Position numbers and translations under genes: made by a program | In this document: one piece after another, positions 44,455 through 50,464 of the stretch | Layout of the letters: every line of letters begins with the position of its first letter | Numbering within the stretch: position 1 is the stretch's first letter | The notes under the pieces: model-generated | The model's database searches: none | Told to the model about the DNA's origin: nothing | Seen by the model: only the letters and a program-made list of their open reading frames with translations | From: Vulcanimicrobiota bacterium | GTDB taxonomy: Bacteria; Vulcanimicrobiota; Vulcanimicrobiia; Vulcanimicrobiales; Vulcanimicrobiaceae | Reading direction: 5' to 3' | Length of the DNA: 64,000 nt | Assembly (NCBI GenBank): GCA_963723515.1 | Contig: CAVRQT010000003.1 | Span: forward strand, 64,001-128,000

Positions 44455-45540
44455 TTAGATCAGCGAGATCGTTTGCTTCTCTTTGGGAATCGACTCAACG
44501 GAGCGCAGCAGCGCGGCCGCGAGTTCGTCGCAGACGGGATCGTCGAGCTCTTCGATGCGTCCTTCATCCGCAAGCAGCGCCTTGAGCGGATCGATCGGCA
44601 TGCGGGCAAGAACCGGCGCTTGTGCCAGTTCAGCAACGCGATCCGCGTACGATGGCCCGAAAACTTCGTACCGTTTGCCGGTATCCGGCGCGACGTAGTA
44701 TGACATGTTCTCAACGACGCCCAAGATCGGCTTCTTCAACTGATGAACGAGGTTCGCAGCCTTGCGTACGATCATCGTTGCCAGCATCTGCGGCATCGTG
44801 ACGAGCACGACGCCGTCGATCGTGAGCGATTGCAGGACCGTCAGGGGCGCATCGGATGTTCCGGGCGGAAGATCGATCAGCAACACATCGAGATCGCTCC
44901 ACGTGACCTGCTCGTAGAACTGGCGAATGACGCCCGAGACGATCGGTCCGCGCCACACCATCGCGGTGTCTTCCTGATCCGTGAGCAGATTTGCGCTGAC
45001 GATTTCGATCGCGCTGCGCGAGATCGCCGGCACGAGCAACGGGCGCTTTTTCCCATCCGCACCGGGCGGCGCCTCCGGATCTTCTCGAATGACGAGCGGC
45101 TTTCGCAAGCCGAAGAGTCGCGGAATCGAAGGCCCCGTGATGTCGGCGTCCAGGATGCCGATGGTCAGGTTGCGCCGGCGCAGGCCAACCGCCAGCAGCG
45201 CCGTCACGAGCGACTTCCCCACGCCGCCCTTTCCCGACATGATCGCGACGACGTACTTGAATGCGGCGCGTCGAGCGAAGGCGCTTGGCGGACGCATTAT
45301 CGGACGTCGGTCTTCATTATTAATCAGCGGGACGCGTCCCGAAAGGCGGGCTTGAACCAGCGCCGTGACGATCGGCTCAACGCGCAGTCCGTGGGCGCGT
45401 GCGCCCTGTTCGATCGTCTCGTAGCGGTTGACCCCGCAGCCCGCGCAGTGCAGCCCGAAAACCGAAAGCACATCCGGCGCGATCGGCAAATCGGCAACGA
45501 GTTGACGGATATTCGTTTCAGGGGCGATCGTGAGGGGCAT
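44455..45540 (-). CDS. Mrp/ApbC P-loop ATPase with N-terminal DUF1858-like CxxC domain
   Basis: FGLHCAGC...ETIEQGARAHG; SGKGGVGKS, DADITGPSIP, DLPPGTSD, VENMS. Confidence 0.88.
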   Translation of the reverse strand: MPLTIAPETNIRQLVADLPIAPDVLSVFGLHCAGCGVNRYETIEQGARAHGLRVEPIVTALVQARLSGRVPLINNEDRRPIMRPPSAFARRAAFKYVVAIMSGKGGVGKSLVTALLAVGLRRRNLTIGILDADITGPSIPRLFGLRKPLVIREDPEAPPGADGKKRPLLVPAISRSAIEIVSANLLTDQEDTAMVWRGPIVSGVIRQFYEQVTWSDLDVLLIDLPPGTSDAPLTVLQSLTIDGVVLVTMPQMLATMIVRKAANLVHQLKKPILGVVENMSYYVAPDTGKRYEVFGPSYADRVAELAQAPVLARMPIDPLKALLADEGRIEELDDPVCDELAAALLRSVESIPKEKQTISLI

Positions 45541-45573
45541 GGCTGATTCTTCCGTCTTGAGAAGGCGACTCCG

Positions 45574-46296
45574 TTGAATACAAACCGATCGCCGGACCTT
45601 TCGTTTGCGGATCACGACACGTTACGCCGGCTCGGTGCGAGGCTAATCGTGAGGGACGACCCTGCTTTTCCGGCCGGCTTACGTGAACTCGAGGATCCAC
45701 CGCATCTTCTCACCGTGCTCGGAGAGTTGCCTTTGCGAGGCGTCGCCATCGTCGGGAGCCGGCGTCCGCCGCAAGAAGCCGCCGAATTCGCATTTGCGCT
45801 GGCCCAACGCATCGCCGAACCGGTGATCAGCGGTTTGGCGAGCGGAGTTGATAGTGCCGCGCACCGCGGAGCGCTCGCGGGCGGAGTCCAAACGCTTGCA
45901 TACATAGGAAGCGGCGTAGCGGCGATCTTTCCACCTGAAAATCAGCCGCTCGCACAAGAGATTGTCCGCAGCGGCGGCGGCATCGCGTCGGCCGAGTTGC
46001 CGAACGCGCTCGTTTCAGATCGTGCGCTCGTGCGGCGTGACGGTTTTCAGGCGGCTCATGCTCGTGCAGTCGTGTTGGTCTGTTCGGAAGCAGGCGGCGG
46101 CGCGATGCATACGATGCGATTCGCGAAGCGCTTGCAGCGCGGACGGTTCGCGATTGTACCAAAGGACGGCGCACAATACTTCGGGAACAGAATCGCCCTC
46201 TCGGCCGGCGCTACGGCGCTTCCTTGGAATATCGAGGATGCGTTACGCGTGCTGCACGAAACGACAAGCGAATCAAGCAATGCCGCATCGATATAA
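45574..46296 (+). CDS. Short DprA/Smf-like protein (Rossmann domain only)
   Basis: DPAFP..L..LEDPP..L, VAIVGSR, VISGLASGVDSAAHRGAL, GGAMHT. Confidence 0.8.
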   Translation: MNTNRSPDLSFADHDTLRRLGARLIVRDDPAFPAGLRELEDPPHLLTVLGELPLRGVAIVGSRRPPQEAAEFAFALAQRIAEPVISGLASGVDSAAHRGALAGGVQTLAYIGSGVAAIFPPENQPLAQEIVRSGGGIASAELPNALVSDRALVRRDGFQAAHARAVVLVCSEAGGGAMHTMRFAKRLQRGRFAIVPKDGAQYFGNRIALSAGATALPWNIEDALRVLHETTSESSNAASI

Positions 46297-46681
46297 TCCC
46301 CTTTTTACGCCTGAAAACGTCCGCTGTGCGCGAGAAGATCGGGGCGCAGTGCTTCACCGCCTCCCTTTTGGCGTCATCATCGTCGATCGGAATGCCAAGA
46401 TCGTCGACTACAACGAAAATGAAGATCTCTCTACGGTCAAGCAAGATCTGATCGGAAAGAATTTCTTCGAAGAGGTCGCTCCGTGGGCTGCGGTCGACGC
46501 ATTCAAGCGCCGCTGGGACGAGTTCATCTCGTCGCAAGAGACGCTTTTGATGCCGTTCGATTTCACGCTGCCCGGTTCGAAGGGGCCGGTTGAGGTAACG
46601 GTGATGTTTGTGCGCGTCAATTTCGACTCAGATCACGCGACAATTTGCATCGCGCGTAAAGCCGAAGTCCCAAGCGCGTAA
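46280..46681 (+). CDS. PYP-like PAS protein with Trp at the Cys69 position
   Basis: LPFGVIIVD...YNENE...LIGKNFFEEVAPW aligns to PYP LAFGAIQLD...YNAAE...VIGKNFFKDVAPC; 133 aa from ATG 46280. Confidence 0.8.
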   Translation: MPHRYNPLFTPENVRCAREDRGAVLHRLPFGVIIVDRNAKIVDYNENEDLSTVKQDLIGKNFFEEVAPWAAVDAFKRRWDEFISSQETLLMPFDFTLPGSKGPVEVTVMFVRVNFDSDHATICIARKAEVPSA

Positions 46682-47996
46682 GGGCGCTGCGCCCGCGAGC
46701 GCGCTGGCGGGCGGCTGCAGTTCGCCCGTCCGGGCGGGTGCCGCGGTCGGCGGAGCACCCTTCATTCAGTCGCACGCGAAAGGCGCGTACGCGTTCGACG
46801 AAAATGGCCGCCGCTACATCGACTACATCATGGCGTACGGGCCGCTTCTTTTCGGGCATGCCCATCCTCGTTTTTCAACGGGTCTGGATGCAATCGCTGA
46901 GCGTGGAGCGCTGTTCGGGTCAACGCACGTTGAAGAGCTTGCGCTTGCAAAGCGGATTGCCGGACATCTTCCGTCGATGCAGCGCGTCCGTTTCACGACG
47001 ACCGGCACGGAAGCCGTTATGTCGGCAATCCGCGTTGCGCGCGCGTTCACCGGCCGCGAGCTGGTCGTGCGCTTTGCCGGGAACTACCATGGCCACTTCG
47101 ATCTGGTGCTTTCTCGTGCGGGCGCATCGGCCGCGCAAAACGGCAAACCAACCGCCTGTGCTGAGCTGCGTCGAAGCGGAATTACGCGCGCCGCGATCGG
47201 CGATGCGATCGTCACACGATACAACGATCTCGATGCGTTCGACCACGCCGTTCGAGGACGCGAGATGCAAATTGCGGCGATCCTCGTCGAGCCGATCGCG
47301 GCCAACATGGGACTCGTCCACCCCGTCCGCGGCTTCTTGGAAGGGCTGCGCCGCAGAGCCGATCGCTTTGGCGCGGTGCTGATCTTTGATGAAGTGATTA
47401 CCTGGCTGCGCTTGGGGTTGGGCGGCGCGCAGCGACGTTTGCAGCTCCGACCCGATCTGACGACGCTCGGAAAAGTTCTCGGCGGCGGTTATCCGATTGC
47501 TGCGTTCGGCGGAAGAGCCGATGTCATGCGCGAGCTCGCGCCTGAGGGCGCAACCTTCACCGGCGGGACGCATGCCGGCAATACGTTGTCAGTCGCAATG
47601 GCGCATCGAACGCTCGATCTGCTGGAATTGCATCCCGAGTATTATCGCTCGATGGCGCAACGAGCAACGCAGCTTGCCGCCGGTTTGCAGTCAATCATTG
47701 CTTCACACGGATTTCCGTATCAGGTCGTTCAAGACGAGAGCATCGTCGATTTCAAGTTTCGAGAGGGCGTCACGCGCAATTGGGAGGATGCATGCGGGGC
47801 AGACGCATCGGCGTATGCAGCGTACTACCACGAAATGCGAAAGCGCGGCGTGCTTTTACCGCCGTCTCAAAATGAACTGATGTTTCTCTCGATTGCTCAC
47901 AGCGCCGCAGACATCGCCGAAACGCTGAACGCGGTCGACGAGGCGTTCGCTCAACTTAAGCGGCGGAAGCCGGTTGGTCAGCGCACGCGCAGGTAG
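46608..47996 (+). CDS. HemL-like class III PLP aminotransferase, divergent; start uncertain
   Basis: GGCSSPVRA, YIDYIMAYGPLLFGH, GTEAVMSAIRVARAFTGR, YHGH, FDEVIT, TTLGKVLGGG. Confidence 0.85.
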   Translation: MCASISTQITRQFASRVKPKSQARKGAAPASALAGGCSSPVRAGAAVGGAPFIQSHAKGAYAFDENGRRYIDYIMAYGPLLFGHAHPRFSTGLDAIAERGALFGSTHVEELALAKRIAGHLPSMQRVRFTTTGTEAVMSAIRVARAFTGRELVVRFAGNYHGHFDLVLSRAGASAAQNGKPTACAELRRSGITRAAIGDAIVTRYNDLDAFDHAVRGREMQIAAILVEPIAANMGLVHPVRGFLEGLRRRADRFGAVLIFDEVITWLRLGLGGAQRRLQLRPDLTTLGKVLGGGYPIAAFGGRADVMRELAPEGATFTGGTHAGNTLSVAMAHRTLDLLELHPEYYRSMAQRATQLAAGLQSIIASHGFPYQVVQDESIVDFKFREGVTRNWEDACGADASAYAAYYHEMRKRGVLLPPSQNELMFLSIAHSAADIAETLNAVDEAFAQLKRRKPVGQRTRR

Positions 47997-48424
47997 CGGC
48001 CGAGCACGACGGCCGTTCCCTTGCCGGGCACGCTGCGGACTGCGAAAATATCGCTGCAGCGCTCCATGATGGGCAAGCCGCGGCCGCGCTCCGCAAACTC
48101 GTCGGGCAGCGGTGTCTTCGGCAGCGGATCCGTAATGAACCCGCGGCCCGAATCGGTGATCGTGGCCACGATCTTATCGTGTTCGATCCGGCATACGATC
48201 TCGATTGCGTCGCGCGATCCGGAATGTTCGATCGCGTTGGCAATCGCCTCGCCAAGCGCAAAGACGAAATCCTCGAGGTCGCAGATTGCAATGCGATGCC
48301 GATGCGCAAACGCGATGACCTCATCGCGGGCACTCTTGCCGTAGCGAGCGTTCGGCGGAATGCAGACGCGGAGCGAAGGACTCTGCGTTCGCCCGTTGCC
48401 AAAGTGCGATTCCGCGCGCTCCAT
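47978..48424 (-). CDS. RsbW-like anti-sigma factor / HATPase_c protein
   Basis: ALGEAIANAIEHS, ITDSGRGF, ERGRGLPIM, GTAV. Confidence 0.88.
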   Translation of the reverse strand: MERAESHFGNGRTQSPSLRVCIPPNARYGKSARDEVIAFAHRHRIAICDLEDFVFALGEAIANAIEHSGSRDAIEIVCRIEHDKIVATITDSGRGFITDPLPKTPLPDEFAERGRGLPIMERCSDIFAVRSVPGKGTAVVLGRYLRVR

Positions 48425-48446
48425 CAACCTAAGCAGTATCGCCCTT

Positions 48447-48470
48447 ATACCCCTCGTACGGCGGATAAAC
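48447..48470 (-). promoter_or_regulatory. SigB/SigF-type stress promoter
   Basis: Minus strand GTTTAT-N12-GGGTAT, ending 22 bp upstream of the RsbW-like ATG. Confidence 0.6.
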
Positions 48471-48532
48471 GTGGTTCTACGGCTTTTTAGAGTCGAATGG
48501 CCTAATGCATCGCAAAGCCGAATGAGCGATAC

Positions 48533-48811
48533 GTGACGGTAGATCGCGAGCGGTCCTACGTCTACGTGCTCATTTGTGCCGACGGTTCACTGTATACCGG
48601 TTGGTGTCGCGACCTGGATCGCCGGATGAAGGCCCACCGCGTTGGCCGCGGCTCAAAGTACGTCAGATCGCGGTTGCCGTGCCGACTGGCAACTTTTTGG
48701 GCGGTCGCAAACCCGTCCGTGGCCAAAAAAGAGGAGGCGGCTTTCAAACGGCTGCGGCGTCCGGCAAAGCTGCGCGCGTTGAAAGATAAGATACTCAAGC
48801 GCCGTTCTTGA
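48533..48811 (+). CDS. Small GIY-YIG nuclease (YazA/YhbQ-like)
   Basis: YVYVLICADGSLYTGW..DL.RR..AH..G.GSKY..SR.P. Confidence 0.9.
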   Translation: MTVDRERSYVYVLICADGSLYTGWCRDLDRRMKAHRVGRGSKYVRSRLPCRLATFWAVANPSVAKKEEAAFKRLRRPAKLRALKDKILKRRS

Positions 48812-49670
48812 CATGCCAATAGACGGCATTTGCAATTGCGCCGATTCCGTGAAGCGCGCCGGCATAGTTCGTCAAGTATTTCGTCAACACGCATAAGATA
48901 AAAGGGGTGTCCCCAAAGGGATCGACGATCGCGGCGTCGTTACGGACGCCGTCCACTTCCCCGGTCTTGTTGGCGATTGGAACACTGGCCGGAATTCCGG
49001 CCGGAATTTTGTCGCGATCGGTTTGACCCAGCATGATGTCGATCATCCGCCGGCATGCGCGGGAAGAGGCGACCGTGTCGAGCCCTTCCCGCGAGCCGCG
49101 CTCGATCTGGTAGAGCAGCATACCGATGTCGCGCGGCGTCGTGACGTTCTCGTGATGGTGCACGATCGCGCTATAGTCGAGGAAATGGCGACGCAGATGC
49201 GTCTGTTCGAGCCCCGCGGCGGCGATCGTTTTATTGATCGATTCGAAACCGAAGTGAGTAATCAACGAGTTTGCGGCGCTATTGTCGCTGAGCCGGATCA
49301 TCGGCACGAGGAGCTGCTCGACCGTGAAGCGTTCGCCGCCCCGCGCGCCGGCTAAGAACGGCGAACCGCCGACAAGGTCGGAACCCCGAATCGCTACCAC
49401 GCTGTCGAGAGCGTTTGCGTGATGATCCTGAGCGCGAAACGCCGTGAGCATGATCAAGAGTTTGATGACCGATGCCGCAGGGAAGACGACCTGGGCATTG
49501 TACGCGACGAGCGCTGAACCGGGCGCCATCGTTCTGGCAAAGATTCCCGCCGCTCCCGGCATATCGTCAACGATCGCGCTGAGATTGAGTTCGTCGGCGC
49601 GGGCGCGCCATGGAGGTATTGCAAAAAGCGCGGCGGTGGCGGAGAGGAACGTCAACCGATCCACACGCAT
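48795..49670 (-). CDS. Class A beta-lactamase-like serine hydrolase
   Basis: ASVIK, SDN, KTG; N-terminal signal; TGATG coupling to the upstream permease. Confidence 0.85.
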   Translation of the reverse strand: MRVDRLTFLSATAALFAIPPWRARADELNLSAIVDDMPGAAGIFARTMAPGSALVAYNAQVVFPAASVIKLLIMLTAFRAQDHHANALDSVVAIRGSDLVGGSPFLAGARGGERFTVEQLLVPMIRLSDNSAANSLITHFGFESINKTIAAAGLEQTHLRRHFLDYSAIVHHHENVTTPRDIGMLLYQIERGSREGLDTVASSRACRRMIDIMLGQTDRDKIPAGIPASVPIANKTGEVDGVRNDAAIVDPFGDTPFILCVLTKYLTNYAGALHGIGAIANAVYWHVKNGA

Positions 49671-50464
49671 CAGCTGCCGGTTCCTTGATAGTGGTTGAGG
49701 CCGACGCGCCAAAACGCATACGAGACGGCGAGCCAAGCGATGCCGATCAGCGGGGTCAGCAGGCCAACTTGTGGCGCTAAGGAGAGACCGCTTTGCGCCT
49801 TATGCAAGAAGTACGTCGCCGGAAAGTAGTTCATGAACGCGAACGGCAGCACGAATGTGAGCACGAAACGCACGGCGCGCGTGTAGATGCTGATCGGATA
49901 GCGCGTAAACTCCTGCTCCAGCGACATGACGACCCAGCGTAGCGTGTCGACGCGAACGAACCAAAAAGAGAGCGTCGCCACGACAAGTGAAATGCCGAGA
50001 TCGATGAGCGCGCCGCCGATCACAATCAGCGGAACGAGCAGAACGAATGCCAGGTCAACCTGCACCTTTGTGTATTGCGTCGCGAAGATGAAGAAGACGA
50101 TCCCGAGGACCAGTTCGTCCGGCCAGATCTGCTGCGGCACGGTCAGCGTTTGAAAGAGCGTGTCGAGGGGCCGCACCAAGAAGCGGTCGAAACGGCCCTC
50201 TCGCACGTATTCGGGAACGCTGACGATCGTAAAGAAGAACGTGTTATGGATCGCGTGGCCGAGCATCCAAAGCGCGTAGAGAAATGCCATCTCGCGAAAG
50301 TTCCAGCCGTTCATCGACGGGAATTGACGCAGCGTTACATAGAGTGCCGCGATCGCCGTTCCGTGGTAGACGAGCGTGAATGCGAGCCACATCAAGAAAT
50401 TGGCGCGATACTCGAGCATCGTCAGGAAGTTGATGCGCCAATATTGCTTGTACGTCGCGAGCAT
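49670..50464 (-). CDS. ABC-2 permease (DUF990-type)
   Basis: EYRANF, VREGRFDRFLVRPLD, RYPISIY, YQGTGS. Confidence 0.88.
   Translation of the reverse strand: MLATYKQYWRINFLTMLEYRANFLMWLAFTLVYHGTAIAALYVTLRQFPSMNGWNFREMAFLYALWMLGHAIHNTFFFTIVSVPEYVREGRFDRFLVRPLDTLFQTLTVPQQIWPDELVLGIVFFIFATQYTKVQVDLAFVLLVPLIVIGGALIDLGISLVVATLSFWFVRVDTLRWVVMSLEQEFTRYPISIYTRAVRFVLTFVLPFAFMNYFPATYFLHKAQSGLSLAPQVGLLTPLIGIAWLAVSYAFWRVGLNHYQGTGS

Follow-up and report, generated by a model that had tools for sequence, protein, structure and literature searches.

The protein encoded by pyp(W69) is a descendant of photoactive yellow protein (PYP) in which the chromophore-binding Cys69 has become a tryptophan. This replacement marks a conserved branch whose Cys69 orthologues occupy the same locus, mostly within a cluster of anoxygenic photosynthesis genes. 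Known PYP chemistry allows no thioester and no photocycle without Cys69, and judging from our sequence comparisons the Trp69 protein is very probably functional and non-photoactive. Two leading mechanisms remain for what it may do instead: either the tryptophan would plug the empty chromophore pocket, or the pocket would sense a phenol non-covalently. Positions given below are those of the window, that is, the whole stretch of 64,000 nucleotides analyzed.

A PYP-derived protein without Cys69

The translation of the ORF at 46280–46681 gives the stand-alone protein of 133 amino acids that the initial annotation had described, with its LPFG, YNxxE, and IGKNFFxxVAPW motifs and a TGG codon where PYP has cysteine (Table 1). 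In an alignment with PYP, Ppr, and FAST, Tyr44 (TAC, 46409–46411) and Glu48 (GAA, 46421–46423) correspond to Tyr42 and Glu46 of PYP, so the two phenolate-binding residues are kept as claimed; because two residues are deleted in the lid segment, the numbering of the tryptophan falls back to 69. With the PYP of Halorhodospira halophila the protein shares the fold, the stand-alone size, Tyr42, Glu46, Leu26/Phe28/Gly29, Gly59, Phe62/Phe63, and Ala67/Pro68. It differs in the Cys69 to Trp replacement, in the shrunken Phe96 and Tyr98, in a shorter lid, and in that tal and pcl were not found.

Table 1 Features of the pyp(W69) locus (window positions)
Feature	Position	Strand	Remarks
mrp/ApbC ATPase	44455..45615	-	Adjoins dprA here; in G291 about 13 kb of puf-bch genes separate mrp and dprA
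DprA-like short gene (Rossmann fold)	45574..46296	+	PF02481, 130 bits; directly upstream of pyp at Trp69 and most Cys69 loci
pyp(W69)	46280..46681	+	Stand-alone PAS protein of 133 aa with PYP fold; its ATG lies within the 3' end of the DprA-like frame
Y-N-x-x-E motif	46409..46423	+	Tyr44 and Glu48, equivalent to PYP Tyr42 and Glu46
Lid segment, Glu46 to Gly59 (PYP 47–58)	46424..46453	+	Variable in the Trp69 clade, where it is shortened by 1–2 residues
Trp69 codon TGG	46484..46486	+	Replaces the chromophore-binding Cys69; one base away from a Cys codon
Trp79 (PYP Phe79)	46514..46516	+	Second fixed Trp gain; W in 17/17 vs F in 79/80
Gate loop FTLPGSKG (PYP 94–101)	46562..46585	+	Phe96 to Leu/Val, Phe98 to Gly/Ser/Thr
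Second hemL-like class III aminotransferase	46608..47996	+	Start uncertain; NF000818 above cut-off
Last beta-strand, A-T-I-C motif	46634..46660	+	Common to Cys69 orthologues; candidate output surface
RsbW-like anti-sigma kinase	47978..48427	-	Shares 41% identity with the kinase domain of the Trp69 PYP fusion P0021

Whether the protein scores better as a PYP than as a generic PAS domain was answered in favor of PYP. Against TIGR02373 it reaches 53.4 bits, below the curated cut-off of 143.05; since a Cys69 orthologue-type protein (85.3 bits) also stays below this cut-off, the model is a narrow one. Pfam PAS_4 gives 31.5 bits, above its gathering cut-off of 23.1, which places the protein in the PAS superfamily. 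All 33 sequence matches in the PDB are PYP, Ppr, or FAST, the best being FAST, and a language-model search likewise returned PYP clusters first. In an AlphaFold2 model built from 113 sequences (pLDDT 80.7), the protein is predicted to adopt the PYP fold with its N-terminal helical cap. All Foldseek matches of this model listed to rank 39 are PYP, Ppr, or FAST; residues 7–127 superpose on PYP 5–125 with Z 15.4 and rmsd 2.4 over 119 aligned residues, against Z 10.9 for the best non-PYP PAS structure. Together these searches rule out a generic PAS domain. The family definition of Xing et al. (2022; PMC9664959, as far as available) asks for Tyr42 and Glu46, which Tyr44 and Glu48 provide, and for Cys69 carrying the p-coumaroyl thioester, where all 17 clade members have Trp69. 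As Cys69 defines the family, the window protein is a descendant of PYP and not itself a family member.

Trp69 is invariant and pyp(W69) is under purifying selection

The conservation of Trp69 among homologues, a check proposed with the initial annotation, was borne out. Trp69 was invariant in the first 16 homologues, and a profile search yielding 104 new rows (103 Cys proteins and one Trp protein) added a seventeenth, giving 17/17. According to their source names, the close Trp69 matches come from Candidatus Eremiobacteraeota and the Cys relatives from Vulcanimicrobiaceae. The codon is TGG in 5/5 separately assembled loci (L042 has the same genes as G336 and was counted once). The single sequencing run listed (share 0.06) covers only 45862–46112, with the Trp69 codon outside. 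Comparison of the five loci in 10 pairs gave dN/dS of 0.07–0.18 at dS 1.0–1.8, comparable to the values for the neighboring hemL and rsbW (0.08–0.11); pyp(W69) is under purifying selection. Since Trp69 is found in all 17 close homologues, with TGG in all five assembled loci and dN/dS near 0.1, a sequencing or assembly error at this codon is ruled out: Trp69 is real, the protein is PYP-derived, and attachment through a Cys69 thioester is impossible, as had been proposed. Because it is still conserved, the Trp69 protein probably has a new, light-independent job.

Gene neighborhood

The gene pyp overlaps the reading frames of both its neighbors, and no promoter-like site was found at 45400–48600. 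We considered the hemL-like gene as a dedicated partner of pyp or a chromophore enzyme and rejected it, because it is a core gene of the family, present in 308/348 genomes; the other hemL of the window's genome is 44% identical to it. Proximity of the rsbW gene, 1.3 kb downstream of pyp, was also set aside as support, since an RsbW-like gene occurs in 88/121 genomes and lies near hemL at 5/28 loci without pyp. No ATG or GTG stands near the conserved start of the hemL-like gene (46608–46700), and at 5/5 Trp69 loci its frame is open into the last 25–30 pyp codons, with a TTG there. Further along, a class A beta-lactamase-like ORF (48795–49736, minus strand; PF13354) is kept at the locus in relatives.

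Cys69 orthologues lie in photosynthesis clusters

A search of 348 family genomes with the profile of the clade gave matches in 18 at an E value of at most 1e-30: G000 (the genome of the window) and G336 carry Trp69, and the 16 others carry Cys69. At least one of the two neighbors seen in the window, the dprA-like and the hemL-like gene, also adjoins these Cys69 orthologues. Reaction-centre genes are found in 15/16 Cys69-orthologue genomes versus 15/330 others, the genomes being kin and not independent. Where 2.5 kb or more of upstream sequence is available, a bch or puf gene is present at 31 and absent at eight of 39 non-Trp orthologue loci (L085 and L086 being included without a reading of residue 69), compared with 0/7 Trp-lineage loci, where mrp adjoins dprA in 7/7 (about five organisms; L087 stops before residue 69). 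As the mrp-dprA join is local, it does not depend on genome completeness. Up to ten genomes that are marked as unpublished (G420, G248, G370, G424, G213, G238, G263, G359, G391, and G427) enter the family tallies; four of them are among the 28 pyp-less loci described below and G424 is in the hemL tree, but each of our claims has support beyond them.

The gene order at the G291 locus runs pcl-like ligase, mrp, flavin oxidoreductase, two reaction-centre genes, cytochrome, crp, bchF, bchC/X/Y/Z (named from their Pfam matches), dprA, pyp, and hemL, which is consistent with the bchFCXYZ and puf sub-clusters in the available part of PMC9758169. The Cys69 PYP lies inside the photosynthesis cluster, behind bchXYZ and the DprA-like gene, at this locus (L101, G291:C5:487000-506900) and at L096, L097, L099, L103, and L107; in genus g47 the pcl-like ligase sits at the cluster edge beside mrp. 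Such a Cys69 PYP is a candidate light regulator of the photosynthesis genes, and in the literature passages covered we found no earlier description of a PYP at such a place in Eremiobacterota phototrophs. The Cys69 proteins of this cluster (L009–L023, L109) share with the window protein the dprA-pyp-hemL slot, the A-T-I-C motif, 36–48% identity, and one tree group. They differ by Cys69, Thr70, Phe79, Phe96, and Phe98, by a full lid, by a position usually directly after bchXYZ, and by hosts that almost always have puf.

G000 (88% complete) and G336 (77% complete) gave no match to Photo_RC, PF00148, BchH, or BchF, nor to rhodopsin or PHY. For 12/14 cluster proteins of G291 and G011 no match was found in G000, where bchP matched only distant flavoproteins and a peptidase used as control was absent too.

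Order of events at the locus

In our PYP trees the Trp69 clade is recovered with SH-aLRT 97–99 and groups with the Cys69 orthologues (92–94), a nesting inside them not being forced (AU p 0.11). Outside the genus, none of the 28 closest loci has pyp (0/28), 14 having mrp-dprA-hemL or part of it and 14 mrp-hemL. The hemL tree, rooted on the long branch of the genome's other hemL and with the best matches to the window's gene as pyp-less loci, places the Cys69 loci as first branches and the Trp69 loci among the pyp-less ones. On the simplest reading, which we infer from these trees, the cluster and a Cys69 pyp were ancestral, both disappeared from most non-phototrophs, and pyp survived in the present lineage in its Trp69 form.

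Loss of phototrophy is the setting of the Trp69 clade and not a rule. G232 has neither puf nor bchF and yet keeps Cys69, and in 29/55 other PYP-carrier genomes the reaction centre is absent while the paralogues retain Cys69; the 99 other PYP-like domains of the family comprise 96 with Cys69, one with Ser, one Trp fusion (G162), and one fragment. Conversely, Trp69 occurs in phototrophs: in the fusion of G162, and in Phaeospirillum, which is on the Trp69 list of Xing et al. (PMC9664959) and is called phototrophic in PMC6532209, both sources as far as available. Phototrophy loss thus neither forces Cys69 loss nor is needed for it.

Chromophore supply

The absence of tal and pcl reported for the window held and extends to the genome (88% complete), whose sole aromatic ammonia-lyase scores over the hutH cut-off and which has nothing close to the 4-coumarate:CoA ligase model. 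As evidence, this absence is weak and non-diagnostic because most Cys69 relatives are without these genes too: a recognizable pcl is present in 4/15 Cys69-orthologue genomes, most of which have no second ammonia-lyase. Across the family, 5/57 genomes have pcl and 5/57 have ammonia-lyase matches under the hutH cut-off. Many family genomes carry up to seven PYP-like matches, nearly all with Cys69, yet few have pcl or a second ammonia-lyase. The hutH of the window's genome appears frameshifted near its start (L003; G000:C3:450753-450875).

Trp69 arose more than once

A motif scan of GTDB genomes returned 10 loci, eight with a PYP-like Trp69 protein and two without such an ORF. Six of the eight are Magnetospirillum-type (three of these are titled otherwise, or only as Proteobacteria or Stygiobacter MAGs or Paramagnetospirillum) and two are gammaproteobacterial; Tyr42 and Glu46 are kept in 6/6 and 2/2, respectively, although the pattern did not demand them. 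A single origin of all Trp69 proteins was rejected (AU p 0.0065 with column 69 removed), the free tree needing four changes, and so was one origin with the gammaproteobacterial pair alone (AU p 0.008). Union with the Magnetospirillum group alone was not rejected (AU p 0.19), the two standing apart on both free trees.

The combination of Tyr, Glu, and Trp is not unprecedented, as had been supposed. A supplement of PMC9664959 holds 11 Magnetospirillaceae Trp69 proteins (nine Y-E-W, two H-E-W) among 31 "PYP_like" rows; neither Trp69 nor those taxa are named in the available main text, and the available supplements contain no Eremiobacterota. These Magnetospirillaceae proteins resemble ours in Tyr42 (or His), Glu46, Trp69, stand-alone size, and a small residue 96, and differ in their distant sequence, their place apart on the free trees, and their position beside a chemotaxis operon. 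In the available part of Dohmen et al. (2025; PMC12826048) only Cys69 proteins are treated, 11 of them from this phylum. We found no paper on PYP C69W or on this clade in the literature covered; most subscription papers, including a 2012 survey of the family that may mention PYPs without the cysteine, and most of the table of Xing et al. lie outside it. What is already known is the tabulation of Tyr/Glu/Trp PYP-like proteins for Magnetospirillaceae; the genomic context of this clade is new. A natural Cys69 loss for which a changed function is proposed is also known from methylobacterial Ppr-PYP domains (PMC9664959, available part), but these are domains of phytochrome kinases with Y42C/S50C, proposed as redox sensors, whereas the window protein is stand-alone and keeps Tyr42 and Glu46.

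Several further Trp69 proteins and residue-69 variants were seen. In L238, where the genes are annotated, a Magnetospirillum-type Trp69 gene is arranged head to head with a STAS-cheY-cheA-cheW operon, and the ORF layout of L239, L240, L244, and L247 is similar. The two gammaproteobacterial Trp69 PYPs (L241, L242) retain Phe96; downstream of them come an unannotated ORF of 380 aa and then KaiC or GGDEF-EAL. Leu, Tyr, and Ser also replace residue 69 in PYP-like proteins (P0025, P0073, L170), and P0017 is a chemoreceptor of 1174 aa with four tandem Cys69 PYP domains.

An RsbW-type kinase as candidate output partner

In two proteins, P0021 and P0053, an RsbW-like kinase is fused to a Trp69 PYP domain, and P0053 is encoded in G162 directly after a STAS gene. 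This makes an RsbW-type anti-sigma kinase the best lead for a partner of the Trp69 PYP. It is a lead only, because RsbW-like genes are common across the family, Phe79 is still present in the fusions, and a test of whether the fusions arose with the Trp69 clade or apart from it gave p 0.43 and favored neither. A complex prediction for the RsbW-like protein with the window PYP (P0001) scored 0.26 (mark 0.32), and a search for longer fusions, limited to 532–2000 aa, returned three unrelated multi-domain proteins. Opposite the STAS gene and the following fusion of G162 (L278:7493-8745, G162:C4), in head-to-head orientation, lie genes for a MaoC dehydratase and for a regulator of the PadR family.

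Changes in the chromophore pocket

We compared the 17 Trp69 proteins with 80 orthologue-type proteins picked from the alignment by Cys69 and TIC, leaving 16 other rows out; by this choice residue 69 is C in 80/80, against W in 17/17, and T121 and C123 are invariant in both sets (17/17 and 80/80, the latter again chosen for TIC). T70A is found in all 17 Trp69 proteins, as is the second tryptophan, at position 79. The spacing from Tyr42 to Gly59 is 15 or 16 in 16/17 Trp69 proteins versus 17 in 80/80 Cys69 proteins. All 17 carry F96L/V and F98G/S/T in the gate loop; Pro97 and Gly101 are already common among the Cys69 orthologues.

These changes are consistent with a plugged pocket, the reading that we rank first, though with a probability somewhat below even. 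A Trp side chain extends about 7 Å from its C-alpha, whereas the phenolate of the coumaroyl group lies about 11 Å away; the indole would then fill the thioester and vinyl part and fall short of Tyr42 and Glu46, leaving water or a small ligand there. By our estimate, made from side-chain volumes and not from a structure, C69W and F79W would roughly balance the lost coumaroyl volume. By synteny, the window gene is the orthologue of a Cys69 PYP that lies in the photosynthesis cluster of Eremiobacterota phototrophs; the puf-bch block is missing in this lineage, and the PYP would have been retained and remodelled into a PAS module that has no chromophore and does not respond to light. In such a module Trp69 and Trp79 might fill much of the coumaroyl space and keep the ligand-free protein folded in a dark-state-like form, the lid and the gate residues needed for photocycling would be relaxed, and the N-terminal cap and the last beta-strand would be kept for partner binding. 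The plug is favored by the volume balance and by the eroding lid. Evidence against it is that nearly all Trp69 proteins keep Tyr42 and Glu46, since a buried Glu is hard to explain in a ligand-free pocket. Against the reading as a whole also stand the loose tie between phototrophy and Cys69, the nesting that the trees do not force, and the small number of whole genomes with Trp69, which are two of one genus, 88% and 77% complete.

The same two residues, together with a FAST-like loop, favor a ligand, and we regard as possible, if less probable, that the Tyr42/Glu46 site binds a small phenol or aromatic compound non-covalently, with Trp69 closing the thioester end or replacing Phe96/Phe98 and with binding switching the ancestral light-output surface. 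Tyr42 is kept in 16/17 and Glu46 in 15/17 clade members, and both in 8/8 proteobacterial Trp69 proteins, in line with the nine Y-E-W and two H-E-W proteins in the available supplement of Xing et al. FAST is a PYP with C69G, Y94W, T95M, F96I, D97P, Y98T, Q99S, M100R, and T101G (PMC5618792) that binds an anionic hydroxybenzylidene dye reversibly (PMC5618792; bioRxiv 2023.08.31.555680), both sources as far as available, and at positions 96 and 98 the clade has changed in the direction of F96I and Y98T. FAST, or Y-FAST, and the window protein both lack Cys69 and have a rebuilt 94–101 loop with an aliphatic 96, Pro97, a small 98, and Gly101. However, FAST is artificial and binds fluorogens, the window protein being likened to it by loop sequence alone, and its Gly69 makes room where Trp69 takes room away; moreover, only two loop positions are derived, because Pro97 and Gly101 are already present in Cys69 orthologues. 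The eroding lid and a position 50 that varies among A, V, T, P, and L are unlike a specific binding site, and Glu46 is replaced in P0008, P0009, and P0053. A new input would nevertheless explain why the gene is kept in one lineage and absent at 28/28 related loci, and Trp69 proteins elsewhere lie beside outputs (the cheY-cheA-cheW operon, GGDEF-EAL, KaiC) or are fused to RsbW.

Slow decay of a relic that outlived the photosynthesis cluster, with C69W merely tolerated and the apparent selection acting against misfolding or for dprA-hemL translation coupling, seems improbable. It would fit the absence of pyp at the 28 closest loci, the overlap of pyp with both neighboring frames, and a TGC/TGT to TGG step that is a single change, and real decay does occur at the locus; it takes the form of deletions, G130 being without the middle of the gene and G018 without the Tyr42–Glu46 segment. 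Against this, the Trp69 gene keeps its full length and reading frame in 17 clusters, with identities as low as 56% and dS of 1.0–1.8, dN/dS remains at 0.07–0.21 when codons overlapping the neighboring frames are left out, and five positions in the pocket do not vary freely, being either fixed or confined to a narrow change. That the protein is still a chromoprotein, attaching its pigment through the Cys123 found in 17/17 Trp69 proteins or holding one non-covalently, is very improbable, as Cys123 is also present in Cys69 orthologues and is no compensating gain, it aligns with PYP Phe121, which we take to face the N-terminal cap and not the pocket, and the genome has no pcl.

Implications

Both family surveys (PMC9664959 and PMC12826048, available parts) point to a gap in what is known of the output partner of single-domain PYPs, and a PYP locked in one state, with RsbW fusions at hand, would make the search for it easier. 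Our results also carry a warning for annotation: PYP photoreceptor genes were counted in Magnetospirillum MSR-1 and SP-1 (PMC6532209, available part), but the PYP-like proteins listed or identified for these strains carry Trp69. If a ligand exists, Trp69 proteins may be natural scaffolds for FAST-type tags. More broadly, and with a rather low probability, PYP photoreceptors could have turned repeatedly, on two or more and possibly four occasions, into non-covalent sensors of small phenols through Cys69 to Trp, as analogues of FAST in nature. Their signals would go to a chemotaxis operon in Magnetospirillaceae, to c-di-GMP or KaiC modules in Gammaproteobacteria, and to RsbW-type partner switching in Eremiobacterota, where the replacement would have come after the loss of photosynthesis. 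Within this family, the matched Cys69 and Trp69 orthologues in the same slot offer a view of a photoreceptor losing its chromophore and keeping a function.
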